40,093 bases of DNA from contig CBDDTI010000382.1 of assembly GCA_965233585.1 (NCBI GenBank), forward strand, positions 1 through 40,093, read 5' to 3'. A program made the position numbers and the translations under genes. The notes beneath the pieces were generated by a model, which was given only the letters and a program-made list of their open reading frames with translations, made no database searches and had not been told where the DNA came from. Positions 2,901 to 28,737 of the stretch are shown one piece after another; the stretch's first letter is position 1; each line of letters begins with the position of its first letter. The DNA is from a bacterium (GTDB lineage Bacteria; SAR324; NAC60-12).

Positions 2901-2962
2901 CGACCTGACTTTGTATCATCAAATGAAATAAATTAATAACACATAACTTCTTTAAAGGAAAT

Positions 2963-3329
2963 AGCTAGCGGAGAAATATCTCCAGGAATATTCTTAGGAA
3001 TATCCCTGAAAATGGTGCCACCTGTCTTGAGAGAGGGATATTCAGGCCCGTAGCCAGGATTTTTTATGGGGGGTGCGATCAGAAAAAAGTGGACCTCAGC
3101 TGTCTGCGGGGGGGGGGGGGGTTGCGATGGGTGCGCCCCGGACCCCATTTTTTTAACAAAAAAGTGGACCTCAGCTGTCTGTGGGGGGGTGCGAGCGCAC
3201 CCCTCACACCCCCCCTCCCTATGGGCCTGATATTCCTGAGAGTTTCAGAGATATCCTTCTTTCAAGCTGGCTAGCACCATTTCCTGGGATATTCCTTGGA
3301 ATATTCCTGGGGATATTCCTCCGTTAGCT
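2963..3329. mobile_element. Non-autonomous inverted-repeat element (MITE-like)
   Basis: agctagcggagaaatatctccaggaatattcttaggaatatccctgaaaatggtgc (from 2963) is an imperfect reverse complement of gcaccatttcctgggatattccttggaatattcctggggatattcctccgttagct (ending 3329). Confidence 0.6.
3043..3229. mobile_element. Small MITE nested in the previous element
   Basis: Termini caggcccgtag ... ctatgggcctg; ATATT on both sides (3038-3042, 3230-3234); internal direct repeat aaaaaagtggacctcagctgtctg and G/C tracts. Confidence 0.65.
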
Positions 3330-4677
3330 TGAACCCTGAGGGAGGAAAGAGACAGCGCGAATAGTTTGGTTCAAAAACTTTCGCTTCATCTTACCACATA
3401 GGCTAATTATCTAATTCATTCCTGTCATCTAAATGATTCAAGTCCATTGAGTGTTCAATAGAGTGAGAGAAAGATCCAGCGTGCCAGTACAAATCTTAGC
3501 AGTACTGACATGGGGCATGGCAGAAAATTAAAGATAAAAAAGTTTTTTGGTACAGTAGATGATGCTGAGAAAAATTCGGACGAAAATATTTTTTTCACTT
3601 CAATGAATTTTGATGTTGTCGCCACCATTTCTCTGTTAGTAAAAAGTTAACACTGAAAACTTCAACATGTTTTCTCCATATTACTGTCTTTTTTTATTAA
3701 ATATGATATTTTTTCTCATTGGGGAAAAAAGTGTTAATAACTTAACAAAGAATTTAAAATTTTTATGGAATTTTTACAGTGACTCCTCTAGAGAGAAGAG
3801 AAGGAAGAAGTGTTTTCTTCTTACAAGAAAGAAGTTTTTGAATTTTCCCACTTTCCAGAGCATGCCTTCACTGGTGGTGCAATCTATGCGTCAAAGGCTG
3901 AACTATTTTCTGACACGCCCCTTAGTGGGGAAATATTCATCAGTTGACCAAGCCAGACCAGTGTCCGGACTGTTAAGTTTTGTACTGGCACAAATGTTTT
4001 GTTATACAATTGTTTAACAAAACAAAATTAAATAATACAAAAGTGTTGCGATACAATTGTTTTATTAATCTTCACTATCCAAAATCTACAGTGTTAAGTA
4101 TAACTCAGAATTCTGAAAAATATGTTGTAACTTCTCCATGATGAAAAATTTTGTGTGAGCTAAGCACATAGCAGAGCAAAAAATATATTAGTTGGAACAA
4201 GTATTTTAGCAAATTAGAGTCAAAACTGAAAAAAATGAATATAGTATTGGAAAGATAATAATTTTACCCTACTTTTGCCCTAGTTTTATTGAAACATTAC
4301 TGAGGGGTTTTACAGAAAATCAAAAATTGGGTTATCAAGCAGTGCATTGGGTTGACAGGTTTTCTCATCATTTTAGATGGGCAAGATGAGGTAGGGCTGA
4401 AAAAATTTTTGGTGTACCCTGGTGGGATGGTGAGCAAGGGGCATAATTGTATCCTCTAATTTTACATGCCCGCAATTTTGGGATTCAATTACAGAATAGG
4501 AGAAAACGGATGACAGAAGCTTGTTTTTAGATGTTTTCGGCCCGAATTCATCTAAATTCATCTAAATGCGTTCTAAATTCATCTAAATTCATCTAGATGC
4601 GTTCTCGTTGCAAGCAAAACGTCAACTGATTCAATCTAAAATCATCTAAATGCACACCGATTTCTGGTGCGTGCACC

Positions 4678-4982
4678 AAAAGTTTGGTGCGTGCATTGCT
4701 GTGTCTAATGCTGGCATGAGAAATTTGGTGCGTGCACCAAAAGTTTGGTGCCGGCATTGCTCCGTCTAATGCCGGCATGAGAAATTTGGTGCGTGCATGA
4801 AAAGTTTGGTGCCTGCATTGCTTCGTCTAATGCTGGCATGAAAAGTTTGACGCGTGCACGAAAAATCTGGTGCCTGCATTGCTTTGTCTAATGCTGGCAT
4901 GAGAAGTTTGGTGCGTGCATCAAAAGTTTGGTGCCTGCATTGCTCTGTCTAATGCAGGCATGAAAAAGTTGGTGCACGCACT
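4678..4982 (+). repeat. Five 61-bp tandem units inside the left TIR
   Basis: Units start at 4678, 4739, 4800, 4861 and 4922; consensus aaaagtttggtgcctgcattgctNNgtctaatgctggcatgaraartttggtgcgtgcaNN. Confidence 0.92.
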
Positions 4983-5028
4983 AAAAATTTCATGCACGCA
5001 TCAAAATTTTACTTGTCTGCATTACTTT

Positions 5029-5088
5029 TTCTGGTGCCGGGATCTCAATTTTGACGCTGGCATGAAATTTTAGATCCCGGCACCAGAA
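5029..5088. other. Perfect 17-bp inverted repeat (hairpin) near the inner end of the left TIR
   Basis: ttctggtgccgggatct (5029-5045) and agatcccggcaccagaa (5072-5088); mirrored at 24616-24675. Confidence 0.85.
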
Positions 5089-5242
5089 TGTCAGCGGTCC
5101 ATAGACGAAGAAACGTGCTCAATAACTTGGGGGTTTTTCTTTTCTTTTTTTGCAATAAACTTCAACGGAATGCTGTTACTAAATAGTTAAGGAAATTGCA
5201 AAAATATGGAAATTTTATTTTTATCTTTTCATCTTCTTTTTC

Positions 5243-6757
5243 TTAAAACTTTCTAACAATCAATTTAGGAAATGGCTTCTTGTAAAACGGGTTTTTTTTT
5301 TTACTATTGCGTCTTAATTTTGAAAGTGGTTCATTTTCATCGTAATTTTTATAAGGCTTTTTGTAAAATGGGTTTTTTCGTAATTTAAAAAGCTGTATTT
5401 CATCATCAGTCAACTTTTTTAACTCTTTCTTTTCTTTCTTCGTTTTTACACCTCGATGTCTTAATTTAGAAAGTGGCTCGTTTTCATCAAAAGTCGACTC
5501 TTTTGACTTTCTCTTTGTCGGTTTTGCATTTATTTTTTTATTTTTTACATTGCGTCTTAATTTCGAAAGTGGTTCATTTTCATCGAAATTTTCACAAGGC
5601 TTCTTGTAAAACGGGTTTTTTCGTAATTTAAAAAGCTTCCCATCCTGTTTAAGTATTTCATCAACAGTCAACTTTTTTAATTCTTTCTTTTCTTTCTTCG
5701 TATTGTATTTTTTATAAGGCTTCATGTAAAACGGGTTTTTTCGTAATTTAAAAACCTTTTCATCTTGTTTAGGTATTTCATCAACAGTTAATTTTCTTGA
5801 TTCTTTCTTTTCTTTCTTCGTTTTTACACCTTGACGTCTTAATTTAGAAAGTGGCTCGTTTTCATCAAAAGTTGACTTTTTTACCTTTTTCTTTGTTGGT
5901 TTTGCATTTAATTTTTTATTTTTTACATTGCGTCTTAATTTCGAAAGTGGTTCATTTTCATCGTAATTTTTAGTTAAACAATCACGTTTTCGCCGCTTTG
6001 ATGGAATGCCGCTTTCATCCTCGTCACTAATGTTTTTTCTTTTGCCGCGAAAAGATGGCAAAGGTTCCTTGGTTTTGTTTGAATTGCGCTCAATTTTGGC
6101 CTTTTCCAATGTTTCTCTCGCTAATCTTTCTTCTTCCAAACTAGCGCGGTAGTTGTGTTTATTACGCAAATGTTGCATAAGAAAATATACCCTTGAGTAG
6201 GTTGCATAGTTACAAAACGGGCATCTAAGTTTTGGCGGAACGATGTTTTTCTTTTTCAAGTCGATGTTTGATGGTTCGCAGTGTTGAGGCTGAGGCTCGT
6301 TATTAAGTAAATTTTCCGATGCAATTTCCTGATGCGAAAGCGTTATTTCCTTTTGATGTCTTACGTTTTCCGCTTCCGTTGGATTTACAGGTGGAAAGAT
6401 GAAATTAGGACCATCGGGCTGGCTTCCGCTTGATGGAGGGACAGAAGTAAAACCATTTTGCGAGAGTTCTTCGCTGTTTCGAGCAGGCAAGGTGTTTATT
6501 TCCATCTGTGCTGGCTGCTCAATGTTATTGAACGTATTTACCAAAGTTGAAACCGTTTTCTTCAAATCTTCCGGTTGTGTCTTGTAGGATTTCTGCTGCT
6601 TAAATTGAATAGCGTCTTCTATATAATTTGCACCTTTATTCAATTGATCTAATTGATTAAGCTTGTCATCTTCGCTAATGACCTCCCTCAAGGCAAGGTA
6701 AATTCGTTTCGGCACCAAAAACATGGTGGATACGTCCTCTTCCTGTTTCTTTTTCAT
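5243..6757 (-). CDS. Element protein (504 aa) with a C2H2 zinc finger and a Lys-rich repetitive C-terminus
   Basis: CPFC-x12-HLRNKH finger; DENEPLSKLR x5, FKLRKNPFYxKP x3, TKKEKKE x3; ATGA overlap with the upstream ORF. Confidence 0.8.
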   Translation of the reverse strand: MKKKQEEDVSTMFLVPKRIYLALREVISEDDKLNQLDQLNKGANYIEDAIQFKQQKSYKTQPEDLKKTVSTLVNTFNNIEQPAQMEINTLPARNSEELSQNGFTSVPPSSGSQPDGPNFIFPPVNPTEAENVRHQKEITLSHQEIASENLLNNEPQPQHCEPSNIDLKKKNIVPPKLRCPFCNYATYSRVYFLMQHLRNKHNYRASLEEERLARETLEKAKIERNSNKTKEPLPSFRGKRKNISDEDESGIPSKRRKRDCLTKNYDENEPLSKLRRNVKNKKLNAKPTKKKVKKSTFDENEPLSKLRRQGVKTKKEKKESRKLTVDEIPKQDEKVFKLRKNPFYMKPYKKYNTKKEKKELKKLTVDEILKQDGKLFKLRKNPFYKKPCENFDENEPLSKLRRNVKNKKINAKPTKRKSKESTFDENEPLSKLRHRGVKTKKEKKELKKLTDDEIQLFKLRKNPFYKKPYKNYDENEPLSKLRRNSKKKNPFYKKPFPKLIVRKF

Positions 6758-7107
6758 TTTGTAATAAGTTGAGTGATTAGAGGTATTACAGCGCTAGCAA
6801 TAGCCGTCAGAACCCCGATTATGCCTCCTCTTTGCAGTATTCGCTTCTTTTTGCAAATATCTCGACTATTGCGCGGGTAATTTGACAGTTTTTTAAAGTC
6901 AGGCAGATGACACCCGACTTTCGATCTTAACCTTGCTCGAACGCGCTTACTAAAAGTAAGCTCTCCGTTCAAAACGTAGTGTATTATTCGACACAGAGTA
7001 TAGATGCCTTCCTCGTTTAAACATCCAATGAAATTGGAACAGTCACGGTCTTTTAAATGTTTTACCGCGTTTAAAAGAGAAACTGCTTTTTCTAGTGATT
7101 TCGTCAT
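6754..7107 (-). CDS. Small basic virion-type protein (117 aa) with C-terminal GG plus hydrophobic helix
   Basis: Ends KKKRILQRGG-IIGVLTAIASAVIPLITQLITK, the pattern of small Polinton proteins encoded next to the ATPase; function inferred. Confidence 0.7.
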   Translation of the reverse strand: MTKSLEKAVSLLNAVKHLKDRDCSNFIGCLNEEGIYTLCRIIHYVLNGELTFSKRVRARLRSKVGCHLPDFKKLSNYPRNSRDICKKKRILQRGGIIGVLTAIASAVIPLITQLITK

Positions 7108-7137
7108 TTACCATTCTACTAAACGATTTTGCCATTC

Positions 7138-7824
7138 TTACGTGCGTACGTTGTACGCCCTTGTAGGCTGTTCGTCCGGAAAAATATGACTTCTTAATCG
7201 AACCAAATTATTCTGTTGCTGATGAAAATCCAGCAGTAAATAGCCATAAGGTCTTTCACCGGTTGCTGCCGCATATGCATCGTTTAGCCGATGCACGTTA
7301 CCCGGATACACCTGTTTAGCCAGGTGCGAGACGGCACTACGGTCTCTGGGATTGTTGAATAAAATCATGTACTGCGAGTTGATGCTGAGCATTCTGAGTT
7401 CGCTTTTGGCGCTAAACATGTTCTGACACAAAAAAACTGTCAAACAATTATAATGATGCGTTAAAACCGTGAAAAAGTGCTTTAGCACCGTTCCTACTTC
7501 ATCAAGAAAATCGTCAAATACTACAATTTTCGGAAGAGCTCTAGGGAACGTTTCCAGTATATCTTTCATCTCTTCAACCGATTCTGGCATGGATGAAAAT
7601 TTGCAGAACCTTTTCTCACGCGCGTCATCGTTCATCCCTCGCTCCATATCAGCATAGGCTGGTTGAAATTCTTTGTAAAATAGAATCATACATTCCGGAA
7701 CGGGCGAGCACATTACGGCCCTATCTTCAACCAGTTTTTTTAGCCATGACGTTTTTCCGCAAGAAGTGGGACCTACCGCGAGTAAGTTAGATGGAAGCTT
7801 AAAGCGCAAATCAAATCCGTCCAT
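7138..7824 (-). CDS. Genome-packaging ATPase (A32/FtsK-HerA-like)
   Basis: Walker A GPTSCGKT, Walker B IVVFDD, HHYNCLTVFLCQN, PYGYLLLD. Likely start MDGFDLRF at 7824 (ORF open from 7872). Confidence 0.93.
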   Translation of the reverse strand: MDGFDLRFKLPSNLLAVGPTSCGKTSWLKKLVEDRAVMCSPVPECMILFYKEFQPAYADMERGMNDDAREKRFCKFSSMPESVEEMKDILETFPRALPKIVVFDDFLDEVGTVLKHFFTVLTHHYNCLTVFLCQNMFSAKSELRMLSINSQYMILFNNPRDRSAVSHLAKQVYPGNVHRLNDAYAAATGERPYGYLLLDFHQQQNNLVRLRSHIFPDEQPTRAYNVRT

Positions 7825-7887
7825 GTTTTTAATTTTTCTTGACACAAAAAAGAGACAAGATATTACCATCAATTTTTATCAATACGT

Positions 7888-10800
7888 TTATTTGATTTCC
7901 TTACATTCATGTTTACAACATTTTTTTACATGACAACTTCCTAAGGCCAAAGTGCACTTTCCGCAAGAAAGCACATAACGTTTGGTGTCCATGGCAGATA
8001 GAGCAATTTTTCGTTGGTGGGTTGTTGACATTCTGTGATTCTTTGATTTAATATTAACAAGAGGCTTATATACCAATGTTGATTCGTTTAAACATTTTTT
8101 GTAATCCTCAAAGGTCAAGTGATTTTTAATACTAGTTTTTTTAAGGCCCTTACAAATTTTCTTTACGCTGGCTCCTCGGGTTTTCAAATCCTTGACCGTC
8201 ATGCTGTAACATTTTGGCCTTAAGCCGATAAATTCAGTAATTGCGGCCTTTCCTTTTAGCTCGTCTTTGAAGTAAAACAAATGGTTGGCTCTGCTATCGT
8301 CAAACAACTCGTGATCTTTATCGTATTTTGAGAAGTCGAACATGTGTTCCATTCTTTTTAACTTTTTAACTAAATTTTGACATTTTACTTGAAACAGAAA
8401 CGAGTCTGTGTCCGAAAAGCACAACTTTAGATTCTCCGTTCCAAAATAACGTCTAAATTTGTCGTACGATCGATACATGTAGAGTTTGGATAGTTCCAAA
8501 ATCGCAAACCCCACCGCCAACGGTTTCTTCATTTCAATAACGGCCGGTTTTTTCATGACAGCCACAAGGTTTTCGTTTATGACTTTCAAATTCGAAACAT
8601 GCTGACCCATGCAAGTCTTTCTCAGCTTCTTTTCATTGTGGCACAACACGATTTCGATGTAGTTTCGCGCGTTCTCTGAAAAAAAATTAAACATTTTATT
8701 GTGAAAAAAGGGAGCCATTACTTTATTTTACCTATAAATTTGCCAAATGTGGAATTGGCAAACAACTTGAAGAGACGTAATTCAAAATCAGTTTTCGCCT
8801 CCGACCTTAATTTTGTAATTTTTGTGATAAAGTTTTTTAAAAAGTCTTTTTGCTCAAACTTGACCGCTCGTCTGATTTTTGTAAGCTTCAGCCCTCGCCT
8901 CAAATAATACTTTAGATTATCTAACAAGACGACATAATTACGTCGCGGGTAGAATGTGGCAAGAAGCTTTCGCGAACTGTAACGTTTGTTTTTGTAATCA
9001 GCCGGACAGTGCTTCTTCAAAAGTTGTTTGTTAAACGGTGACAGATCATCAAAGTTTATTGTGTCAGTGTAAGGAGCCAAAGGAAATTGATCATCTCTCT
9101 GCAAAATAAATAAAAAAATTTTTCTAGCAGTTGGTGTTTAGCAAAAACAAATTTTTTTACCTTATGATATTTTTTTGGATAGTGCAAATCCACTTCAAAA
9201 GCATAGCCAATCCTGCTTTGCGAAGGCAAATTCAAAATGTCCTTGTCCGTCCATGTTTTTATCACCTTTTTTGGCACCCACTTAAAATTACCCACCGGCA
9301 GCATGCGTGTTTCCATGCTGCCGTAAAGATTGTTAGCTGAAAATGTATCGTAATTTTAATCAATCTTTTTTTCTTTGACGTTTAATAAAAAATATTACCA
9401 TCTACATATAGTAAATGCTCGCCGCTCGCTTTAGGATCGGCCTGACCCGTCGCTTGTCTGGTAGCTATAAAACTCTGCCCTCCTCTAATGCCGCGTGTAA
9501 AAAACTGTTCCATTGCCGGATCGTGAAACAAGTCCAATGAGCCCGGTGGTTTCGACATAAAATCGGCACTAATCTCTTCTTCGTCTTTTCTTTCTTCATT
9601 TTGAAACATTTTCAGCATGATGTCAAATGACAAGCCAGGTATACCTAAATAGTAGATGGGATCCAACTCAAAGTGCTTCATCACCATTTCTCGATACTTT
9701 ACAAAAATCTCAGCCAGCAAAATCACGTCCAGTCCGCAATATAACTTCATGTAGTCGTCCATATTTTTACAATTAAAAAACTTGTACACTTCATAGCCGT
9801 GCTTATGATCTTCGGTTGAGATGTGGGCTTCGCTCAATCTCGAGTAGAAAGCGTCTTTTGGTGGAAATTGACTGTTTTTAATTGACTCATATGATGAAAA
9901 GTATTCATACGGATATACTCCTTTTCTTTTCAATAATTTTAAACCTTTCGCCTTTTGTCGCGTCCACAGCCTCCTGTAAGGCTCAAATTGTTTGAGAATC
10001 GGAAAGGTAAACGTCTCATCCTTGCATAAATCGGTCATGAGCGCATCAAGACTGGATGGCACGTGCTCTAGAGAATCCCTAATTTGAAATTTTCCAATAG
10101 TGATTGTCCTAAACTTTTCTTGGTTACTCGCCATCAGATTAGCCTCTTTGTCCAATTTTTCTACTAGTAGATTTATGTCATATCTTAAAATTAAAAAAAT
10201 TAAAAATGACTTTCCCTCAAGTCAAGGATTATAAATATTAAAAAAGTCTGTACTTACCCTTTGGCGTTGTGAAAGTATATAGGTGTTCTAAATGGGCCCT
10301 GTCGTTGCAGATTGCAAATAGAATGCGCCGCTTGAACAATGTTTCCGGTGACGTGATCATGATCAACCACTTTTTTATATAATCGCGAGCCTGAATCAAA
10401 TTCTTTTTTGCAAATATGACATAGCGTGGCGGCGCGGTACTCTTCCCAATCATGTTTGCTCGCTATAATTTGAGATGTGTTCTTGAACCGTTGCTTTCGC
10501 GCTTCCACTAATTCTTCGAAATAATCCAGCTTTGATAGAAAATTTTCCACAGCGTCTTTTCCACTGTACGTTTCTTGATAAAATACTTCGTTTTCCGAAT
10601 CGACAAAACAAATTGAATAGCCGCAAGCTCGATGTTTACTTAGCTCAGTGCATCCCGACACTTGACATTCGCATGTCACCCACGCTTTTCCGCATGTTTT
10701 ACATGTTTTTGCTTCTTGCTCTGACTTTTCCATAAAACACTCAAAATCAGCAAATCCCACTACAGGTGCTTTAAAAGCATTTCTTTGCTTATCGAAATTC

Positions 10801-11453
10801 AAGACACTGCCCTTTTCCGGATAAATCACCGCTTGTTTATCCATTTGACAGATTTTTTCGTGTAATTTTTGTTTCTTGTGCGAACGAAAATCTCTTAAAC
10901 AGCTGTCACAAAAATAAAACTGACTTCTATGCCGTCTTCCTTTGGTCATAGCAGATTTTCGGTTGTTCAAAAAGCCATTTAAATTAGCAATAGTGAAAAA
11001 ATGGTGCTGATGCTCAAGGTCTTTTACGTTGGAAATGCCATTTACGTCAATGCTGTCTTTATTGGCCGATGAAATTCGACAATCACTTTTAATCATTAGC
11101 AAATTTAGCGTATTTTTGTTCTTATTTTTCTCGCCAGATCTATTGGAGAAAACGTCTAAAACACTCAGTTGATGTTCACCTTCAAAAAGAACTCTTATAC
11201 GTAACGGTAGGTGCTTGTTAATTCGAACAAACTTACTAATCTGGCTAAACTGCAGGGGAAAGGTTAAACCTTGCAAGTTAAATTTACTTTCATACTCCTT
11301 GGGAATTTTTTCGCATCGTCTGATGTTTGCCGTTTCCGGCCAAAGATGTCGTATGACACAATATAGAAAGTTCTTTTCATCGTATTTTCTGTTCCATAAA
11401 ACACTTCGACACTTTAATAAATACTCGGGCACGTTTACAGAGTCGCTGTTCAT
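7888..11453 (-). CDS. pPolB: Protein-primed family B DNA polymerase, 5 exons, 1103 aa after splicing
   Basis: Exons 11453-10258, 10183-9399, 9336-9161, 9098-8732, 8675-7888 total 3312 nt in frame. Motifs: ExoI FADFEC, HNH/EndoVII-like DHDHVTG..AHSICNL, ExoII FHNAKGYD, KGVYPYEY, ExoIII YCGLDV, motif A YVDANNLYG, motif B KLFANSTFGK, motif C SDTDS, PKCY. Confidence 0.95.
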
Positions 11454-11456
11454 TTT

Positions 11457-12092
11457 TTAAAAAATACTGCTACAGTCATAGATTAAAACGCTGCAACTTT
11501 GAAGTTGAGCAAATCGCCAGCCTGAACCTCTAGTTAACAAATCGTCTTCCCTCTCCACCGATCCAACCAAAAGTGACTTTATCCTATCTCGAATCTGCTC
11601 ATCGCTTTGATATTTGTTGACCGCGACGCCTTTTGACCGTAACGTGAAAGAATCGATGTCGACGCTTTTTCCCTGACTTTCTTCATCTAAACCCTGTATC
11701 TCGTAATCTGCCGTGATTGTTATACTTATTCGACAAACCACCCGATGTGTAAATTGACTTTTAACGAGATTCAACACATTTTCGATCGTTTGCTTAGAGT
11801 TGCAAAAATCTTGCAAAGAGCTTTTTAAGTGAGTCAGTTCTTGTTGGAAAATGCAAACTTTGTCGCCAATGGCTCCTTGCCTTTTAGAAAATACCCTTGA
11901 TTCCGCGTGATTCGAATCTACGTGTGACGATAACTCGTTCTTATCACTGTATTTAAGTTCACAAAACGGGCACTTTCTTAACTTGTCGCGACCACTATGA
12001 TTTGCTTGATTTCTGTGTTTTAATTTTAAATGATTGACAAGACGACTCTTTCTGGAAAACGATATGTGACACGTTTCACACTTGTGCGTCAT
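11457..12092 (-). CDS. pPolB N-terminal region (putative terminal protein) with two C2H2 fingers, present as a separate 211-aa ORF
   Basis: CETC..HLKLKH and CPFC..HVDSNH fingers; RGSGW motif typical of the Polinton pPolB N-terminus; ends TAA-AAA-ATG in frame with the polymerase ORF. Confidence 0.75.
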   Translation of the reverse strand: MTHKCETCHISFSRKSRLVNHLKLKHRNQANHSGRDKLRKCPFCELKYSDKNELSSHVDSNHAESRVFSKRQGAIGDKVCIFQQELTHLKSSLQDFCNSKQTIENVLNLVKSQFTHRVVCRISITITADYEIQGLDEESQGKSVDIDSFTLRSKGVAVNKYQSDEQIRDRIKSLLVGSVEREDDLLTRGSGWRFAQLQSCSVLIYDCSSIF

Positions 12093-12187
12093 TCTTTTTT
12101 TCTCTCGCTTTTAAACTTTTTCTGAAAAAGGAAAAAATGATGTATCTTATAATCTTTAATATATACACACACAAACAATTGTTATAT

Positions 12188-12958
12188 TTACAATAAATTA
12201 TTTGCACTTTCTACAAATTCTTGGACTTCAGTTAAATTTTTTTTATACAGATCGCGTATGGAAGGGTTTAAAAACAAATTTCCCCCTTGCGACTCGTAAA
12301 ATACGAGCAAGGGGGACACCTTACTTAAAATTTTTTTCAATTTTTCCGTAAAAACCTGCGGATCCGGACAGGGGCGGTTTACCCTCAAGTCGAGCCCCTC
12401 ACTAATGACCCCTCCATTTACCGACACGCGCGGTAATCTTACCACCCTTTGCGGTTCGGGGATGACGAGTCGCGGCGGTGCAGCTAGAAGCGGAGTTGTT
12501 ATCGGTGCCGGACGGATCGGCCTTAGCTGAGCCCGCAAAGCCCTCATGTCACACAACATTGGGGATTGCGGGAGGGGCACAGCCGTTGGAGACATAATTG
12601 GTAGTCTCGGTGGAGCCGGAGTTGGGGGGCCCGGCAAAAACAAAGCAGGTTGAAGCGGACGATAGGGAGCCGGCATTGAATAGACCGGTGATGCCACGGG
12701 CGATGGGGAAGGCGGAGGGCTGTAACACACCGGTCTGAACGATGTGTTTGGTGTCGAGGTTAAAAGGGGCTCAGTTCTAATTCGTATAAAGGAAGTGGAA
12801 AGGGAAGCGGGCGGTGAATTCGAAGGCAGCGCGACGGTGGAAGATGCGGACGTGAGCTCGACCGAGACTTGTTCCACTGGTGTCCTTCTTCCCAGTTTTA
12901 TTTGGAAAGGCCCACACCTCTTAAAACCAATCAATCTTGATTCCCTATTTTTTGGCAT
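12188..12958 (-). CDS. Proline-rich, probably disordered protein (256 aa) with a helical C-terminus; function unknown
   Basis: Long GC-rich ORF in AT-rich context, co-oriented with pPolB, with ATG 3 nt downstream of an acceptor-like gctttctag. Confidence 0.7.
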   Translation of the reverse strand: MPKNRESRLIGFKRCGPFQIKLGRRTPVEQVSVELTSASSTVALPSNSPPASLSTSFIRIRTEPLLTSTPNTSFRPVCYSPPPSPSPVASPVYSMPAPYRPLQPALFLPGPPTPAPPRLPIMSPTAVPLPQSPMLCDMRALRAQLRPIRPAPITTPLLAAPPRLVIPEPQRVVRLPRVSVNGGVISEGLDLRVNRPCPDPQVFTEKLKKILSKVSPLLVFYESQGGNLFLNPSIRDLYKKNLTEVQEFVESANNLL

Positions 12959-12992
12959 TGTCTAGAAAGCAGGGTGGTTGAAATCAGGTTTA

Positions 12993-13100
12993 AAATTTTT
13001 TGCGTAAGCTCAATTTTGGGTAAAAAATTTTAAGACTTTGAGCACTTGTTAAATTTTTTTTTTGCGTAAGCTCAATTTGTGTAAAAAATTTTTAGACTTT
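12993..13100. repeat. Imperfect ~48-bp direct repeat x2 in the divergent control region
   Basis: aaatttttt(ttt)gcgtaagctcaattt.g.gtaaaaaatttt.agacttt at 12993-13039 and 13051-13100. Confidence 0.8.
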
Positions 13101-13999
13101 AACCAACTTTATGTTTAAAAATATTTTTAAAAAAACTTCAATGTTTAAAAATTGTAAAGACTTTTTTGTCTACTTACGATTTTTTCAAGTGTCTAAAAGA
13201 TAAAACCAGGATCTTTTCGGTTTCAGTTTAGATTTTGGAATGACTCCTTATCTCAAAAAGGGTCATTCATGTAAACTTTTTAATAGTAGAAAAAAGGCGC
13301 AAAAATTAAACCTGGTTTTTTTCAAAAGATAATTAATTTTGGAGAAAATTTTAACCTTTCTTGTAAATCCTTTTTATCCCCGCAACCTGACGTCAGATTG
13401 TGTTTTCCGTGCAATTTTCCTTTATTTTTGTTCATTTTTCCGCACATGCATTAAGGCTTAAAGCAAAAGCGCCGAAATTGGAGCAAATTAATGACAAGAT
13501 ATGAGACAGTGTGTTTGCTAAAAATTGTTTTTTTTCTTTTAAACAACAGTCAATTTTTTTAGCAGCACACCCATTAAAATAAATCAGCAAAAGGAAAAAA
13601 GATTAATTATTAAAAGATTAACAATCGGGTCTTTGCACCCTTTTTTGCGGTCAAAGAAATAAAGAATGACAATTTTCTGGAAGGAAAATTAGCGTTGAAA
13701 ACCATTAAGCAGAAAAACCATTAGCTCAAGTGAGAAAAAAAGCACGTGCCAAGGAGCAGCATCTAGAAAGGAGAAAAAATTCTCCATTTTACAAAAGATG
13801 CCCTAATTTTAGGTCATTTTACCGACAAAAAAAATTTGAAATGAGCATTTTTAAATTTTTTTCAAACCTTTATAAAAATAATTGCTTTTAGATTTTTCTA
13901 GTTTCTTCTAGAACTTTTTTTGCCTTAAAATGGGTTAAAAAGTTGACCATAATTTCATCGAGAATATTCTAGCATTTGCCATTATACAAGTCAAAATAG

Positions 14000-14007
14000 T
14001 ATAAAAG
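14000..14007 (+). promoter_or_regulatory. Canonical TATA box upstream of the 14089 gene
   Basis: TATAAAAG, 89 nt before the ATG. Confidence 0.55.
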
Positions 14008-14088
14008 CCAATTTGCGCTTTTGGTGAAACACCAATAATAGTTTGACTGGCTTCACATCCACACCTAAGATAAAACATCGGTCGCGTC

Positions 14089-15304
14089 ATGGGTAAACCG
14101 GCTACATCATCTGAAAGCAATGGCAAAGGCAGCAAGACGATCTTGTACAAAAAAAAGGGGAAGTCTGCGCATAAAAAGGTCGCGAAAAAGACACCGTTCG
14201 AAAAAAGCCACGTTGAAAAAACGTCAAAAGTTTACACCAAAGAGCAAAAAAGTAGTAAACTTGCCAAATCCCGTTCGTCATCTGCGAACAAAGGACATAA
14301 GCAATTAGAAGATTCCGACTCAGACATGGAGAAGGATGAGGACATGAGAGACAACGAGAATTCAAGCGATGACGAGTCTGAAGAATCCGGCTCAGAGAAC
14401 ATGCAAGACGGCTCTGATAACGATGATAACGATGTTGAGTCTGATGCTGCCCAAGATGATAACGAGGATGACGATGATGACGAAGATGATGACGATGCTC
14501 CGACTGATATTGAAGAACCGGAGATGGAGGATCAAAGAAAGCCGTTTTGCGCGAAAAAAAGACCAAGGTCCGATTCAGGCAAAAAGAAATTACCCGATTC
14601 AAAGAGGAAAAATTATGTCGAGCCGGAGCCGGTTTCGTCCAAGGTGGATGGGATTAATTTGACAAGGAAAAAGCAAGAGGAGTTGTTTCGACCCTGCAAA
14701 TGGGATCTTAACGAGCGCGTAAAAACCGCGGAGGTAAACTTTTCCAAGTGGCTTGAAAGCCACAGCCATCGCGAACAATATTTTATTGGAGACGACGGGG
14801 TGAGTAAAACAGTTTAGAATCAGCTCAGCGTATTTTTAATTTAAAAAACTTTTCTGCGCTGTTTTGCTCAACAGTACATCTACCCTAATCCAGCCACCAT
14901 GAAAAAGTTTATTGAGGCTTTTAAAAACAAGGAGGTGTCATCGCGATCGGTGAGCTTGCCTTTTGCCCCAATGAGCAAAGTGATTGCATCCAACCCTAGG
15001 ATGGTAATTGGAGTTAGCGGCGTTAGGCATATCCAGCGTGCTGCGGGCCTTAGCGTGTGGCCGGTATTTTACGTCTCTAAAGAGCAGGTAAGGCGAAATA
15101 AAAATGTAAATAGAAAAAAATTGATCGGAAAAATGCGTAAAAAAATCTTTTTTCCCGCAGTATAACGACAACAACAAAAGCCACAGCACCAAGATAATTA
15201 GGATGAATTTTCCTCTGCACAAGTTGGATGAATTTACCGAGGGTATGGTGGAGCTGTGTCAAGGTCTGGATTTTCCCATCAATGCCAAACTCGGCGGCAA
15301 GTGA
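14089..15304 (+). CDS. 3-exon gene (355 aa): basic then acidic N-terminus, C-terminal domain possibly PC4/whirly-like ssDNA-binding
   Basis: Exons 14089-14799, 14875-15087, 15161-15304; phase-0 introns gtgagt..caacag (14800-14874) and gtaagg..cccgcag (15088-15160) join three open frames. The fold call is an inference. Confidence 0.75.
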
Positions 15305-15427
15305 AGATGCGTGTGTGCAACCGCGGCAACAGCCGCGGCAACGGCGGCGACTGCAGCTTTGCTGCAGAACAGAAATCAGATTTGCGGCTTTTTATTAACT
15401 AAAACATTATAGGCAATTCTGTATATT

Positions 15428-15913
15428 CTAATAAAGCTTGACTTGCAAACAATTAACTAAATGTTTGACGCGTTTTTCATTTTCGCGTAAATTAACGGGA
15501 TTAAAAAAAGTGCAAAAGTGCCGCGGATTCGCGTTTGCGTATGCATTGACAAACATGCAGAATGCGGCAGCATACCACCCGCAAAACAATGAATCGAAAG
15601 CTTGAATCGATCGGTCCAAGACATGTCTTATTCTGCCGCAATTTTCCCATTTTTTCAAAAAATGGATGAGGTGGTGATTATAGGCGGGCACGGGTAGTGC
15701 ATAGCTGTCGAAATAATACAAATAGTTTTGCTTATTAATAAAAAAGGCGATGAAATGACTGCCGGGATGGCTTGAAACCGAAAGATTGACGATGGCGCAA
15801 CAGCTAGTGTTCCACAAGTTTGAGGGTATCGTGTCGACTGCAAAGGTGCCGATGAAATTCTTGCAAAGTGGGGATAAAAACCGATCTAGAAATACGTTGC
15901 TCAAACCGGTCAT
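15428..15913 (-). CDS. Adenain-like cysteine maturation protease
   Basis: Catalytic H (GSHFIAF), D (YFDSY), Q and C (IQAFDSLFCGWY). Confidence 0.93.
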   Translation of the reverse strand: MTGLSNVFLDRFLSPLCKNFIGTFAVDTIPSNLWNTSCCAIVNLSVSSHPGSHFIAFFINKQNYLYYFDSYALPVPAYNHHLIHFLKKWENCGRIRHVLDRSIQAFDSLFCGWYAAAFCMFVNAYANANPRHFCTFFNPVNLRENEKRVKHLVNCLQVKLY

Positions 15914-17247: not shown

Positions 17248-17316
17248 TGTCGAAAATGCATGCTAGTCTGTAGTTTTCTGTTCTTCTTAAAAAGAGGGAG
17301 TCGGTGGTGTGCAATT

Positions 17317-18657
17317 TTAATATTTTATTTTGGTAACCTGAAGGTTGCTGTCGATGGAAATGGCAGCATTATAAATAGCGTAAGAAATCAGGGTTAGGGG
17401 GGTTCTGGTGGGGGTGTTAAAAGTCAAGTCTAGTTCTAAATTTCCGGGCACTCCGACGTGATTGTGAAAGGATAGGCATTTATCCGGAGTCAAGTCGAAC
17501 GCGAGAAACATCTGACCCCCTGTAAAAGCTTGGGGTGAAATACAATTTCTGCCGCCGACGTTGCTTTGAAAATGGTCGTACAATTCCATATAATCGCCTG
17601 TAAGTATCTTGCATTCTATAGGTCTAGGCATGAGAAGTCTTCCATTGTTTTTTAAAATGACGGATCCTAAATCGGCGTGTTTAAATTTAAAGGGAAATTG
17701 ATCGCTCGGTCCCTTGGCAAAAAGGTCGCTTCGAAGCATGCAGAAAATAATTTGTTGCGGCAACATCTCGCTATTGTTGATGTGATTTGCAGAGAAACTA
17801 AGGGAACCAGACGGGATCAGATAATGCTTCATCTGCGTGTCTTTAAAAGGCAGAAAAAATGGTCGACCTTTTAGCAGTTCGGCGTTTAGCCTGTTTCGCA
17901 CACGCTCGCACGGTAACACTTTTCTCATGCGAAGTTTTAATTCCTTTAAACGAATGCGATAGACTTTGTTCGGATTATCTTGAAGCAGCCCGAAACACGG
18001 GTTGAACCTGCGTAATACAACAGTGATTTCCACATTCGGAGGTAAATATTTGTCGGTGTAAAAAATATCTGCGGGCAAAGTTGAGCTAAAATAAACTTTT
18101 TTGTCGTTTATTATTTTCGCGCGATTCTCCGCGATGCATTGGCACATTTTACCGGTCGTGGTAATATTGTCAAAGCATTTGTCGTGGTGCGTTCGGCAAA
18201 AGCCTTCGGACCGTCCCACATTTGTTAATACATTATTGTTATAGGACAGGAGAAAGTCAATGTGGTGTTTGTACGAATAAGAAAGAGGGGCACTCAAATC
18301 ACATATTTGAGTTCCGTTAAGGTGGACTTCAATTTGCGAGAATAATGCGGCGCAATAATGGTTAGTAATTGTTGGCGTGTCAGTGTCTGTTACACCCTCG
18401 CCGCTGTCGGTCTTTACCACAAAGTAACCCTCTAGCCTTGTCTGATTTAAAACAAAAGCGCATTCGGGGTCGGAAGGAATTGAAAACGTAACATCTTCTA
18501 AATCTTCGACGGGAGTCACGCTATTATATAGCACAGTACGACCTGATATTAAATCCGTGTCTTCGAGGGGGGTCGCATGCGCATTCAAACTATCACCCTG
18601 CAATTCATTGAAATCCACATTTAAACCGCCGACACCGCCATTAATCAACGATGACAT
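17317..18657 (-). CDS. Major capsid protein (double jelly-roll), paralog A, 446 aa
   Basis: Colinear with paralog B: QTRLEGYFVVKT, LFSQIEVHLNGTQICDLS, YTDKYLPPNV, MRKVLP, LPQQIIF, FDLTPDKCLSFHNH. Confidence 0.88.
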   Translation of the reverse strand: MSSLINGGVGGLNVDFNELQGDSLNAHATPLEDTDLISGRTVLYNSVTPVEDLEDVTFSIPSDPECAFVLNQTRLEGYFVVKTDSGEGVTDTDTPTITNHYCAALFSQIEVHLNGTQICDLSAPLSYSYKHHIDFLLSYNNNVLTNVGRSEGFCRTHHDKCFDNITTTGKMCQCIAENRAKIINDKKVYFSSTLPADIFYTDKYLPPNVEITVVLRRFNPCFGLLQDNPNKVYRIRLKELKLRMRKVLPCERVRNRLNAELLKGRPFFLPFKDTQMKHYLIPSGSLSFSANHINNSEMLPQQIIFCMLRSDLFAKGPSDQFPFKFKHADLGSVILKNNGRLLMPRPIECKILTGDYMELYDHFQSNVGGRNCISPQAFTGGQMFLAFDLTPDKCLSFHNHVGVPGNLELDLTFNTPTRTPLTLISYAIYNAAISIDSNLQVTKIKY

Positions 18658-19211
18658 TTTTAGACAACACGGAGCACGTCACTGTCACAAATATAAAGCT
18701 TAGCTGCACAATTATTCTTACGGATGAGGGGCCGTTATCCTTAAATAAAGATGTGACACAAAAAGTTTTTAGTAATTTTACGGTAGTGAGGAAACAATAC
18801 GTCTACACCATTTTCAAGACCCGCGGAAACAACAAATCATATCATGTCAATATTACCAAAGTGCCGTCGCGAGCGGATATAAAAATATCGTTAAGTCTGC
18901 TGACGGACATTATCAGCAATCGTTTCTTTGTGCAAACATGGGAAATAAACAATTTAACTTGTTCCTTTCGTGCGGGCTTTGAGATACCGCTGCCGGACGT
19001 TTTTGATAAACTTCGAAAGGAGAGCTACGTGAAAAAAGTACGCTTCAATCCCGAACGTTTCCCGGGCATGTTTGTGACTTTTGAAGCCAACACGGTTTTA
19101 ATATTTTCCACAGGCAAGATGGTAATCATCGGGGCCAAGTCCGAAGATGCGGTCAAACATAGTTTGGACTTTATTATAGATTTTTTGAAACAATATAAAA
19201 GCGATCGATAG
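18651..19211 (+). CDS. TBP: TATA-binding-protein-like factor (186 aa), intronless
   Basis: Clear C-terminal TBP repeat INNLTCSF..FEIPL..FNPERFPGMFVTF..TVLIFSTGKMVIIGAKSEDAV; divergent N-terminal repeat VTNIKLSC..NFTVVR..YTIF..VNITK. Confidence 0.9.
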   Translation: MTFLDNTEHVTVTNIKLSCTIILTDEGPLSLNKDVTQKVFSNFTVVRKQYVYTIFKTRGNNKSYHVNITKVPSRADIKISLSLLTDIISNRFFVQTWEINNLTCSFRAGFEIPLPDVFDKLRKESYVKKVRFNPERFPGMFVTFEANTVLIFSTGKMVIIGAKSEDAVKHSLDFIIDFLKQYKSDR

Positions 19212-19229
19212 TTGATTTGCGTTTCAGTT
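19194..19229 (+). promoter_or_regulatory. TATA plus initiator core promoter for the TFIIB-like gene
   Basis: TATAAAAG at 19194 and TCAGTT at 19224-19229 (A 32 nt downstream of the first T); ATG at 19255. Confidence 0.65.
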
Positions 19230-19254
19230 TTGCAGCGCGTGCGGAGAAATAAAC

Positions 19255-19977
19255 ATGCCTCGCTTTCATAATTTCAACAGGACTTGTTCTCATTACAATA
19301 TTGTGGATGATTTTTCAAACGGGTGTGAAGTATGTACAGATTGCGGGCTCGTGATGCATGATCGGCTATATGCCTCGTATGACTATCGGCTCGAATCGAT
19401 TAAAACGGAGAAAATGAGCGAGGATGTGACTTGCGACAAAAACAATTTTACTGATGAGACAATGCAAAGGGTATGCTATAAGTGCAATATCGAATGCGCG
19501 GATTTAAAACGCGTCATCGCCAAAAAATGGGACGCTAGCGGGAAAAGAGGGAAAAGAGGTGTTTGTTTAGAAAGTTTAGCGGTAATGTGCATCTACTCCG
19601 CGCTTATAGAGTCGGGGGTGCCGCGACCGATGAAAGATTTATGTGCCATAACCGGCGTCAAGCAGGACAAAGTGTGGCAATATCTTAAAAACGACGACTC
19701 TTTCTACAGCCCAAATTTAATGTGCGAATATTTTCTTCACTCTTTAAATCTAAGCTACAAGGAGTTGAAGGAAATTAGAGAGAAAGTAAAGCAACACGAA
19801 AAAAAGTTTGTTTTTTCGCCAAAAACACTAATCGCGGCATGCGCGCACGTCTTTTTAAGAGAACAACGGAGTAGGGTTGATCAGGAAAAGCCGAAAAGCT
19901 TATCACGTTTAGCCGAGCAATTAGGCGTTAGTCCGATGGCCTTAAGCAGGTGCGTCAAAAAAATTGAAAATTGTTAA
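19255..19977 (+). CDS. TFIIB: TFIIB-like transcription initiation factor (240 aa), intronless
   Basis: Zn ribbon CSH..IVDDFSNGCEVCTDCGLV; cyclin repeat 1 ESLAVMCIYSAL..GVPRPMKDLCAITGV; repeat 2 SPKTLIAACAHV..SLSRLAEQLGVSPMALSRCVKKI. Confidence 0.88.
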   Translation: MPRFHNFNRTCSHYNIVDDFSNGCEVCTDCGLVMHDRLYASYDYRLESIKTEKMSEDVTCDKNNFTDETMQRVCYKCNIECADLKRVIAKKWDASGKRGKRGVCLESLAVMCIYSALIESGVPRPMKDLCAITGVKQDKVWQYLKNDDSFYSPNLMCEYFLHSLNLSYKELKEIREKVKQHEKKFVFSPKTLIAACAHVFLREQRSRVDQEKPKSLSRLAEQLGVSPMALSRCVKKIENC

Positions 19978-19980
19978 AGT

Positions 19981-20412
19981 ATGCGATACCACCGCGGTCC
20001 GTCTGTGCAAGCTGGGGCGGGATTAGGTTCAATTTTTAGCAGTCTTTTCCGGTCGTTGGTTCCGGTGGCGAAGGGCGCCGCAAAGACAATCGGTAAAATT
20101 GCGAGAAGCGAGGGTGTCAGATCCGCGGGACGATATTTGAAAAAAGAGGCGGGACGAGCGGCCATTGACACCGCACTGGAAGCCTTGGACGGCAAAGCAG
20201 TTGGAGCCGCTGCGAAAAAGAGATTAAAATCCGCGACTAGAAACATCTTACTGGCTGGTAAGGCGAGTAGGCCTGCACAGGCGTCCAAGAGACCGGTCAA
20301 GAGAAAAAATAGCACGCATGCGGTAGGAAGCGGTAAGAGAAGAAAAACAAAACAAAAACCGCTGTTTTATGTTGAGGACGACAACGACGACGACGACGAG
20401 GATGATTACTAA
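19981..20412 (+). CDS. Basic core/DNA-condensing-type virion protein (143 aa)
   Basis: QAGAGLGSIFSSLFRSLVP N-terminal motif typical of Polinton core proteins; Ala/Lys/Arg-rich body; acidic tail. Confidence 0.75.
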   Translation: MRYHRGPSVQAGAGLGSIFSSLFRSLVPVAKGAAKTIGKIARSEGVRSAGRYLKKEAGRAAIDTALEALDGKAVGAAAKKRLKSATRNILLAGKASRPAQASKRPVKRKNSTHAVGSGKRRKTKQKPLFYVEDDNDDDDEDDY

Positions 20413-21481
20413 ACGCGAATTTTTAAAAGCTTACACTTCGCCCGGCTCGCCTTTTGCTTTTTCATCGCCGAACCGCGTTTTTAATCATTTTAACGGGACC
20501 ATACCCATAAATAAAATAAAGAAATGGCTGCAGGCGTCAGACACCTATACTCTGCACCGACAACCTAGGGCTCCAAAACCTAGGAACCCGACCTATGTTT
20601 ATTACAAAAGATATCAATTCCAAATAGACTTGGTTGAAATTGGAAAAATGGCAAGCGCGAATGACAATTATCGTTACTTGCTGACAGCGATCGACATTTT
20701 TTCGAGATATGCCTTTGTTGAACCCATAAAAAACAAGACAGCTTTGGTTTTTTTACAAGGATTCAAAACCATTGTCAATAAGGCTGGCCAGCCGCCTCGA
20801 AAAATTCTAGCTGATAGAGGGTTAGAGATCAAAAATAAATTTTTTAAAGACTACTGTCGACGTAATGGCATTACTCTTTTACACAGCGACAACTTTGTGC
20901 ACGCGCCGTTTGTGGAAAGATTTAACAGATCTCTAAAAAGTCTAATGTTTAAATATATGACATCTAGGGGTACGGATCGATTTATCCACGTGCTTCAATC
21001 TTTAGTAAAGACGTATAACTCGCGCGTACATAGAATGATCGGTATGAGTCCGGCTGAAGCGGAAAAAGCAAAAAACGCGCCCAAAGTCCGAATGAAACAA
21101 GAAGAGGCTTATGCGAAAATAAAGAGGCGACCGCCTAAATTTAAGAAAGGCCAGACGGTCAGAATAAGTAACTACAGAGCTCAATTTGACAGAGGTTACA
21201 ATAAGCAATTTACTGAAGAAATTTACAAGATCAAACGGGTGTTTACGCGATTACCCATACCTACATACGAACTGGAAACTCTGGACGGTGACGAGACGGT
21301 AGAGGGAAATTTTTATGCTAATGAGCTGACTCTGGCCAAGCCGCCGGAATTATTTCACATTGAAAAAATTGTTAAAAGGAAGAAAGATAAAAGAACCGGG
21401 CAGAAGTTGGTGTTGGTCAAGTGGAAAGGCTATAAAAACCTTAGCTGGATTGCGGAAGATAACGTTATTAATCAGGCGTAA
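20402..21481 (+). CDS. Retroviral-like (rve) integrase with C-terminal chromodomain
   Basis: YTLHR, D-D-E triad (FQIDL, ILADRG, VERFNR), YNSRVHRMIGMSP, GNFYANEL, chromo-like FHIEKIV..LVKWKGY. First ATG at 20402. Confidence 0.95.
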   Translation: MITKREFLKAYTSPGSPFAFSSPNRVFNHFNGTIPINKIKKWLQASDTYTLHRQPRAPKPRNPTYVYYKRYQFQIDLVEIGKMASANDNYRYLLTAIDIFSRYAFVEPIKNKTALVFLQGFKTIVNKAGQPPRKILADRGLEIKNKFFKDYCRRNGITLLHSDNFVHAPFVERFNRSLKSLMFKYMTSRGTDRFIHVLQSLVKTYNSRVHRMIGMSPAEAEKAKNAPKVRMKQEEAYAKIKRRPPKFKKGQTVRISNYRAQFDRGYNKQFTEEIYKIKRVFTRLPIPTYELETLDGDETVEGNFYANELTLAKPPELFHIEKIVKRKKDKRTGQKLVLVKWKGYKNLSWIAEDNVINQA

Positions 21482-21486
21482 CAAGT

Positions 21487-24076: not shown

Positions 24077-24599
24077 CCTTATTACAAAGGAACTTTCTAG
24101 AAAACCCTAGAAAAAATTGCGGACAGGTTGAAAAATGTATCTTGTCAAAAATTAAAAAATTCTTTTACAAAATACCTTCAATCCTAATTGTTTTTAAATG
24201 ATAGGAATGTTCTAGAAATGGGAAGAATTTATAAAAAGAACAAAAAAGGAAACATCTGCTTTGCGCAAAAATATTATGTAGAAAACACCAGAAAAAATCG
24301 CGGTCAGTTCAAAGGTGATTTTTGGAAAAAATTAAAATTGCATGGTAAAAAATACCAAGGAACCATACAACTTTTTCGAGAAATCAAATTTATATAAAAC
24401 CTTTTTGTGCTAAAAACAAAAAACACAATTGATTAAATTATTGATAAAAATCACATTAAATTATTGATAAAAATCGCTCGTTTACTGATACCATTACAGC
24501 AAGAAAATTTACACAGAATGAAGAAGAACATTGTGACATTGCAACACCAGTTATGGTAAAAAAGAAAAAAGCTCTGCTTCTTTTCTCCAATTTACTCAA

Positions 24600-25140
24600 C
24601 TATGGACCACTGACATTCTGGTGCCGGGATCTAAAATTTCACGCCAGCATCAAAATTGAGATCCCGGCACCAGAAAAAGTAATGCAGACAAGTAAAATTT
24701 TGATGCGTGCATGAAATTTTTAGTGCGTGCACCAACTTTTTCATGCCTGCATTAGACAGAGCAATGCAGGCACCAAACTTTTCATGCACGCACCAAACTT
24801 TTCATGCCAGCATTAGACGGAGCAATGCAGGCACCAAACTTTTCATGCACGCACCAAACTTTTCATGCCAGCATTAGACGAAGCAATGCAGGCACCAAAC
24901 TTTTCGTGCACGCACCAAATTTTTCATGCCAGCATTAGACACAGCCATGCAGGCACCAAACTTTTGGTGCACGCACCAGAAATCGGTGTGCATTTAGATG
25001 CATTTAGATTGATTCAGTTGACGTTTTGCTTGCAACGAGAACGCATCTAGATGAATTTAGATGAATTTAGAACGCATTTAGATGAATTTAGATGAATTCG
25101 GGCCGAAAACATCTAAAAACAAGCTTCTGTCATCCGTTTT
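24600..25140 (-). repeat. Right terminal inverted repeat (541 bp; four 61-bp units at 24722-24965)
   Basis: Reverse complement of 4503-5104, one 61-bp unit shorter. Confidence 0.95.

Positions 25141-28737
<3,597 letters not shown>

Follow-up and report, generated by a model that had tools for sequence, protein, structure and literature searches.

A Maverick/Polinton DNA polymerase gene that is probably divided by four inherited spliceosomal introns

Is the DNA polymerase gene of a Maverick-type element, found in five reading frames, a decayed copy or a gene that is spliced? The question is raised by contig C382 (CBDDTI010000382.1, 40,093 nt, whose full length is called the window below) of a 12-Mb, 747-contig assembly classed as a prokaryote genome. 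The window holds an element of about 20.6 kb of the Maverick/Polinton type, bounded by terminal inverted repeats (TIRs) of about 600 bp, and the polymerase gene of this element, pPolB, lies on the minus strand in five stop-to-stop frames, with a change of frame at each of four intervening segments. Given the evolution of these segments in copies and relatives of the gene, we consider it highly likely that this is an intact-looking pPolB of five exons with four inherited introns of the U2 type, and that the introns belong to the element.

A polymerase gene in five frames

When the four segments are removed, the five frames join into one (Table 1). The exons sum to 3315 nt counted from position 11456, and to 3312 nt, or 1103 codons and a stop, from the ATG at 11453. 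The first-pass annotation had placed GT-AG segments of 74, 62, 62 and 56 nt here, and its coordinates and sizes are exact; the single 1103-aa frame that it described and its junction peptides, FHNAK-G-YD (codon split GG|A), YVD-A-NNLYG (G|CT), YPKKYHK|RDDQFPLAP (phase 0) and FGKFI-E-NAR (G|AG), are likewise reproduced from the sequence. Each segment has a length of 2 modulo 3, starts with GTAA and ends with a T-rich tract followed by AG, and the A+T content of the four is 77-81%, versus about 62-64% in the surrounding kilobases. The joined translation contains the exonuclease motifs Exo I (DFE), Exo II (N-x3-YD) and Exo III (Y-x3-D) and the polymerase motifs Pol A (D-x3-LYG), Pol B (K-x3-NS-x-FGK) and Pol C (DTD). 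Matches to PF03175 exceed the cut-off in exon 2 (30.1 bits, profile positions 82-197) and in exon 4 (27.5 bits, profile positions 300-386), exon 1 scores 20.8 bits against PF02945, under the cut-off of 23.6, and 492 homologues are found at E <= 0.001. The motif names follow the usage of this family and a passage of PMC10748475, a paper whose mentions of introns refer to a group I intron.

Uninterrupted homologues provide a direct view of the predicted joins. Forty-four homologues of at least 900 aa, all single ORFs (open reading frames) in public data, were compared with the window by tblastn, and for the best 14 of the 44 the successive matches abut in query coordinates at the junctions (14/14). 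In P0006, for example, the matches run from 22-358, 362-628, 624-684, 686-806 and 800-1056; the three unmatched residues at junction 1 are codons left outside the matches. The gap fraction of the homologue alignment at the junctions is 0-0.09. In this comparison, which the first-pass annotation had proposed as a check, the uninterrupted homologues need no intronic residues.

Could the segments instead be frameshifting insertions in a decayed pseudogene, with GT-AG ends that are coincidental? A plain reading of ORFs, which breaks the gene into five frames, favours this explanation, and the copies of the gene contradict it. The assembly contains nine further pPolB copies at 88-100% identity, which differ in sequence and in flanks, and GT and AG are kept in each. 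Across the 3315 nt of exon, the eight full-length copies have no indel column (the copy on C246 ends at the contig edge); all indels of the nine copies are confined to the four introns, and many of them are not multiples of 3. In the copy on C58 the exons carry 359 substitutions and no gap, as against 28 gap columns in 254 nt of intron, where the p-distance is 0.289. dN/dS against the window, calculated on whole codons within exons, is 0.08-0.24 in all nine copies, none of which has an in-frame stop, and the third-position excess is strong. Frameshifted pseudogenes evolve differently, and we read the segments as introns. As the ends of the segments are also GT..AG across diverged families and uninterrupted relatives show the predicted joins (see below), decay can be given almost no credence.

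The splice sites themselves are of a common type. In the 162 intron-bearing locus-junctions of the families described below, strong donors (GTAAGT or GTAAxx) and acceptors (T-rich, with CAG, TAG or AAG) recur uniformly; a pyrimidine-rich tract precedes the acceptors, whose hexamers are mostly TTTCAG or TTTTAG. Self-splicing introns of group I or group II were considered and rejected, the segments being just 56-74 nt long and ribozymes of these groups hundreds of nucleotides; an Rfam scan of 7800-12200 (E <= 1) gave just one match, below threshold, to a miRNA family, at 23.4 bits versus a gathering score of 69. The four segments are very probably ordinary spliceosomal introns of the U2 type.

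Inheritance, gain and loss

How old are these introns? A tblastn search of the assembly with the five exon peptides gives 76 loci, which we grouped by protein identity to the window: family A, the window family, with 10 copies at identities of at least 91%, family B (65-68%), family C (56%), family D (52%), family F (47%, the single locus C288) and a heterogeneous family E (30-35%). Splice ends were mapped in loci of at least 40% identity, with the intron ends placed from exon matches and the known codon phases. We find GT..AG in 43/43 loci at junction 1 (intron length 58-88 nt), 41/41 at junction 2 (55-96 nt), 39/41 at junction 3 (57-88 nt) and 39/39 at junction 4 (55-74 nt in 14 loci, 941-2322 nt in 25). 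The homologous site thus has GT..AG in 162 of the 164 locus-junctions, in families down to about 44% protein identity, and the expectation that sister elements would keep the intron positions holds in several families. The flanking exons are conserved between families, whereas the intron sequences are not alignable from one family to another. Of the 38 loci in which the set of five exons is complete, 33 are free of stops in their exon matches.

An alternative is that introner-type insertions, or insertions of miniature inverted-repeat transposable elements (MITEs), colonised the provirus after its integration. Introners are known inside dinoflagellate proviruses of Maverick-Polinton-like type, according to the available sections of PMC12166617 / PMC11957031, and a MITE-like insert of 226 nt is present in exon 1 of the copy on C98. 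Those dinoflagellate proviruses are full-length and resemble the window element in carrying spliceosome-dependent intervening sequences. Their introners, however, are repeated mobile families, mostly acquired post-integration, whereas the window introns are single-copy in the assembly and shared by descent: in a blastn-short search of the 12-Mb assembly, which covers part of the host genome, the four introns match only family-A pPolB loci (10, 10, 9 and 9 matches), they share only low-complexity runs with one another, and families with protein identities of 44-75% have inherited them at the same positions. Colonisation by mobile introns is therefore very unlikely, and the reading of the four segments as old introns of the element stands.

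The presence and absence of introns among the families suggest a simple history. Intron 3 is precisely absent in 2 of 41 loci (C98, and C212 on the minus strand), where the exons abut seamlessly. A fifth intron lies within YYLG|IPG in families B, C and D and is seamlessly absent in family A and in C288. In a tree of 45 sequences, families A, B, C, D and F form one clade (support 1.0) that is sister to the intronless L068, whereas family E falls elsewhere. In the simplest reading, five introns would have arisen on the stem lineage of a single Maverick clade and been kept through its split into at least five families. At least three precise losses would have followed: some members of family B lost intron 3, and the fifth intron disappeared both from family A, to which the window belongs, and from C288. 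The introns would have been inherited with the element because it replicates through DNA. Seamless losses are expected from recombination with spliced cDNA and may be an indirect sign of spliced RNA.

Several features of single families stand apart from this history. The family E locus C492 is one uninterrupted ORF of 1344 aa; family E as a whole was nevertheless rejected as uniformly intronless, as seven other loci of this family have longest open frames of 300-888 aa, through introns or decay. In families C and D and in C288, intron 4 measures 0.9-2.3 kb instead of about 56 nt. The long form (L099, C212:9000-15300, at about 3050-5300; L100, on C106, at about 2900-3950) contains low-complexity repetitive ORFs, including an antisense ORF of 423 aa with repeats of the GGAWSSS type. 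The MITE-like insert of C98, a family-B copy, has inverted ends and lies at 7383-7608 (L101).

Relatives from outside the assembly are for the most part uninterrupted. We compared 84 environmental loci of 26-39% identity, from 80 metagenome and 4 viral contigs. The gene is contiguous in one frame at junction 1 in 59 of them (12 not covered, 4 unclear, 6 with an insert, 3 other), at junction 2 in 65 (12 not covered, 2 unclear, 5 other), at junction 3 in 47 (17 not covered, 19 unclear, 1 other) and at junction 4 in 58 (21 not covered, 4 unclear, 1 other). A handful of inserts and shifts of frame occur in these 84 loci, none of them, on a cursory view, obviously at an intron site of the window. 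These counts, together with the papers cited below that call the core genes intronless, bear out the starting premise that pPolB is usually a single ORF.

Closer public relatives are ORF-sized products, 118 proteins at E <= 0.001, and we inspected the best 72 of the 118, with 57-98% identity to exon 5. Among these 72, 47 span exon 5 alone, and in the other 25 a single ORF covers exons 4 and 5, whose two matches are separated by exactly one residue. In 24 of the 25 uninterrupted ORFs the sequence reads FGKFI-E-N, the residue predicted by the G|AG split; the remaining one was missed by the search pattern. P0125 also spans junction 3, where it reads the predicted join YPKKYHKRDDQFPLAP. The uninterrupted public ORFs are natural intron-free forms of the predicted joins 3 and 4. 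Single-sequence scans of genome contigs and of viral contigs with exon 5 gave no close relative, and an alignment query against the viral contigs found nothing. The 47 bare exon-5 pieces also support the concern that ORF-based screens, which in published work rely on intronless ORFs or prokaryotic gene callers (PMC8097293, PMC10120064), would miscall such elements.

Motif placement and probable nuclear expression

The first-pass annotation had noticed that each intron lies in or beside a conserved motif. This is true and statistically unusual, with a P value of about 1e-4. In the alignment with the 44 homologues, local conservation at junctions 1-4 is at the 99th, 99th, 88th and 86th percentile (P = 0.0002 for the four against random positions, 20000 draws). 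The fifth junction is at the 92nd percentile, and for the five junctions together P = 4e-5, or 1e-4 when the random positions are limited to the polymerase part. Survivorship could produce this pattern: within a motif only an exact deletion is viable, which would make introns there harder to lose. Alternatively, there may be a real advantage in tying active enzyme to correctly spliced mRNA.

A second lineage of Maverick pPolB with introns bears on the same point. L102-L105, on eukaryotic contigs of another metagenome bin and at 28-45% identity, resemble the window gene in having short GT-AG introns that lie within Pol motifs A and B or next to them. One follows D-A-N of motif A in phase 0, 5 nt from the site of window intron 2; another precedes motif B, whereas the window intron follows it; a further one lies in ILEL|SKL, and there is none at window junctions 1 and 3. 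These positions differ from those of the window and represent independent gains, once more at conserved blocks. It is conceivable, though we hold the idea only tentatively and think it doubtful, that introns in replicase motifs are a recurrent adaptation of animal Mavericks, a licence that ties the polymerase to nuclear mRNA processed by the spliceosome. Such a licence might aid expression, export or escape from the silencing of intronless foreign transcripts, or might be a fail-safe against partly active enzyme made from aberrant RNA, and intron losses would then occur through spliced cDNA. As a separate observation, the introns of L102, L103 and L105 hold tRNA genes (ARAGORN): the motif-A intron contains a tRNA-Ile, the one that precedes motif B a tRNA-Leu in antisense orientation, and the third intron of L105 a tRNA-Ile.

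How would such a gene be expressed? RNA polymerase II of the host would transcribe the element in the nucleus, which the TBP-like and TFIIB-like genes of the element fit, and the host spliceosome would remove the introns from the pre-mRNA. Only then would the 1103-aa polymerase be translatable, and active polymerase would come only from nuclear, spliced mRNA. We expect splicing to be constitutive and not a switch. The view that the lineage is adapted to nuclear expression gains from introns across five diverged families, from two further introns in another gene of the element and from its TBP-like and TFIIB-like genes. Introns and these genes together suggest a small DNA virus closely fitted to the nuclear expression machinery of its host, and its dependence on nuclear splicing is well supported.

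A further question is whether splicing controls replication, as the first-pass annotation had raised. The textbook case is the third intron of the P element, by whose regulated retention the transposase is gated through splicing. By analogy, one or more introns of pPolB would be retained by default and removed according to tissue, stage or stress. Every intron shifts the frame, and retention of intron 1, 2, 3 or 4 leads to a stop 1, 5, 34 or 4 codons past the exon end (for intron 1, an in-frame TAA at the donor); within catalytic motifs, any retention would give a dead enzyme. Against this, every one of the 162 locus-junctions with an intron has strong splice sites of uniform type. The introns, which are not alignable between families, show neither competing sites nor conserved elements, and no alternative site or regulated retention is seen in what is DNA only. 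Introns were lost three times while the lineage persisted, which speaks against each being an indispensable switch. Gating by splicing is improbable, and as a proposal about replication it is speculation, backed by no result. Constitutive splicing remains our preferred reading.

Some points weigh against this reading or bound it. Of 7 listed sequencing runs, 0 are recorded as RNA, and four runs over 6800-24400 yield DNA-like contigs that read through the introns, with no joint at any intron site; DNA-like as they are, they are silent on expression. Constitutive and regulated splicing are not separable from DNA. Our criteria for an intron were GT-AG ends, frame, tract and evolution, and the splice-site usage of the host was compared on one or two genes only. 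As the tree is a quick FastTree one, built on a query-anchored pseudo-alignment and rooted at the midpoint, it is by parsimony that gains and losses are placed in order.

Spliced transcripts are familiar from a relative with a similar enzyme. The E2B DNA polymerase of adenovirus, a nuclear virus related to Polintons, is a protein-primed family-B polymerase expressed from spliced transcripts of host RNA polymerase II, in which short leaders from upstream are spliced onto a coding body that is itself essentially continuous. In the window pPolB, unlike in this layout, the introns split the catalytic motifs.

The canonical pPolB of Mavericks/Polintons, in vertebrates, nematodes and protist endogenous viruses, belongs to the same PF03175 family and has the exonuclease and polymerase motifs, and these elements follow the same plan as the window element (long TIRs, rve integrase, packaging ATPase, the last only a candidate in the window). 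They are described as intronless, whereas the clade of the window has four to five inherited introns. In the portion of text available from PMC8097293, intact vertebrate Mavericks have intronless ORFs ('no introns were observed'), which is said to agree with Kapitonov and Jurka 2006. The available part of bioRxiv 10.1101/2022.07.12.499685 describes nematode core genes as intronless, with introns in cargo genes only; in extracts of PMC10120064 the choice of MetaGeneMark is explained by the statement that endogenous viruses 'do not contain introns', extracts of PMC8547959 report no introns in EMALEs, and those of PMC12721341 judge gaps not to be intronic, GT-AG being lacking. Ginger1 transposase genes with 1-4 introns, of the GT-AG type, appear in an extract of PMC2836005; there, as here, the enzyme gene of a mobile element needs host splicing, but Ginger1 encodes a cut-and-paste transposase, and the window element is self-replicating and virus-like, unlike the Ginger1 and P element transposases. 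In the open full-text literature searched, with subscription papers and Repbase reports beyond reach, we came across no account of a Maverick pPolB that has spliceosomal introns by inheritance.

The practical consequence concerns how Mavericks/Polintons are counted. They are usually annotated and screened as intronless, their intactness being judged by unbroken ORFs and prokaryotic gene finders, and intron-bearing elements of this clade would be under-counted or scored as decayed, though intact-looking and multi-copy. The clade further lends itself, as a compact natural case, to the study of how introns evolve in a virus-like replicon, with deep conservation of position, three precise losses, an intron expanded to 1-2.3 kb and a non-random placement in motifs.

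The element and its host contig

Introns and purifying selection are also what would be expected of a host gene, and pPolB might be a domesticated gene that gained introns. The gene, however, lies within a complete element with TIRs, an integrase, a putative ATPase and other genes (Table 1). Ten or more near-identical copies of this element are spread over different contigs, and the sister families add dozens. Domestication is more unlikely still than colonisation by mobile introns, and we continue to regard the introns as those of the element.

Table 1. Features of the element and the predicted exons and introns of its genes, in window positions
Feature	Position	Strand	Description
pPolB gene	7888..11453	-	five exons and four introns; 1103 aa once spliced
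pPolB exon 1	10258..11453	-	N-terminal region, HNH/Endonuclease-VII-like segment, Exo I, first half of Exo II; ends ...FHNAK + GG
pPolB intron 1	10184..10257	-	74 nt, GTAAGT...TTTTAAG, phase 2, within Exo II (N-x3-YD)
pPolB exon 2	9399..10183	-	YD of Exo II, Exo III, YLGIPG block, as far as YVD of Pol motif A
pPolB intron 2	9337..9398	-	62 nt, GTAATA...TTTTCAG, phase 1, within Pol motif A
pPolB exon 3	9161..9336	-	58 full codons
pPolB intron 3	9099..9160	-	62 nt, GTAAAA...TTTGCAG, phase 0, ahead of the conserved DDQFPLAP block
pPolB exon 4	8732..9098	-	through Pol motif B, K-x3-NSTFGK
pPolB intron 4	8676..8731	-	56 nt, GTAAAA...TTTTCAG, phase 1, three residues past motif B
pPolB exon 5	7888..8675	-	Pol motif C DTD, KxY, Cys-rich C-terminal tail, stop codon
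Left TIR	4503..5113		arms 93-94% complementary
Right TIR	24591..25140		arms 93-94% complementary
Walker-A ATPase ORF	7141-7827		weak Pfam match, E = 0.0023
C2H2 zinc-finger ORF	11457..12110	-	directly upstream of pPolB, own stop
Gene with two further introns	14074-15301	+	acidic N-terminal part, no Pfam match
Further intron	14800..14874	+	75 nt, GTGAGT...CAACAG; GT..AG in 10/10 other copies
Further intron	15088..15160	+	73 nt, GTAAGG...CCGCAG; GT..AG in 9/10 other copies, GC..AG in 1
TBP-like and TFIIB-like genes	18645..19977	+	PF00352 E = 1e-16; TFIIB-like gene small, directly downstream, zinc ribbon 21.8 bits, below the cut-off of 29
rve integrase with chromodomain-like tail	20327..21481	+	PF00665 E = 1.9e-10 (20327-21478); Chromo 24.3 bits, just under 25.1

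Looked for at the level of Pfam, a double-jelly-roll major capsid protein, a penton protein and an adenain-type protease give no match in the other large ORFs of the element. No matching direct repeat was found at the two ends as a target-site duplication of about 6 bp; the right end adjoins the boundary of a segmental duplication.

A whole-element alignment with the 82%-identical copy on C58 was used to map indels that are not multiples of 3. These are limited to the four pPolB introns, short intergenic spacers, a non-coding region at 12989-14070, the TIR-proximal ends and two short plus-strand stretches, which are the two further GT-AG introns of Table 1. Copies of the gene that contains them have indels only in the two introns, bar one in-frame indel of 21 nt. 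The element has at least six predicted introns. Between two large minus-strand ORFs, at 17263-17316, an intron was rejected in favour of a plain stop, a spacer and an ATG. The stretch at 12962-14073, mid-element, is non-coding and of low GC content (0.29), with tandem repeats of about 60 nt at its start and many indels between copies.

The zinc-finger ORF upstream of pPolB shares homology with the N-terminal portion of those pPolB homologues that are uninterrupted, such as P0030, P0025 and P0024. It is separate and has its own stop in 9/9 family representatives; in the window copy alone, an extra A in the spacer of 5-6 nt puts it in the same frame as pPolB. A fusion of the two by frameshift or read-through across the spacer (TTTTTTAAAAAATG) was rejected: no other copy shares the extra A, families differ in how long the spacer is and in the relative frame of the two ORFs, and the upstream stop is present in all 9 representatives. 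By eye, no GT-AG pair of usable length is seen between the zinc-finger ORF and pPolB.

What is the host? The assembly is mixed. About 2.8 Mb are large contigs, of which C745-C747 have bacterial genes of the FtsZ/MreB type, and about 9.2 Mb are small, largely eukaryote-like contigs, where Maverick copies abound and five or more families are represented. The element is flanked by split carboxylesterase genes and by WD40 genes of the NWD2 type, and from these flanks we conclude that the host is an animal; the element is a provirus, and its contig, derived from the animal host, ended up in one bin with the genome of a bacterium. A homologue search with the carboxylesterase ORF, aimed at the identity of the host, gave nothing at E <= 0.001. 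A loose check of the claim that the intron sizes match those of the host gives roughly 70-105 nt for an intron of the host carboxylesterase gene, which ends in TTTCAG and has an imprecise donor; another gap between host exons in the window is about 610 nt, and the genome-wide distance from GTAAG to TTTYAG has no usable peak. For the copy of the carboxylesterase gene that begins precisely where the Maverick ends on the right, upstream exons were not found to the left of the element. The gene is carried by a 3-kb segmental duplication of 96.3% identity (25140-28145 and 36480-39500).

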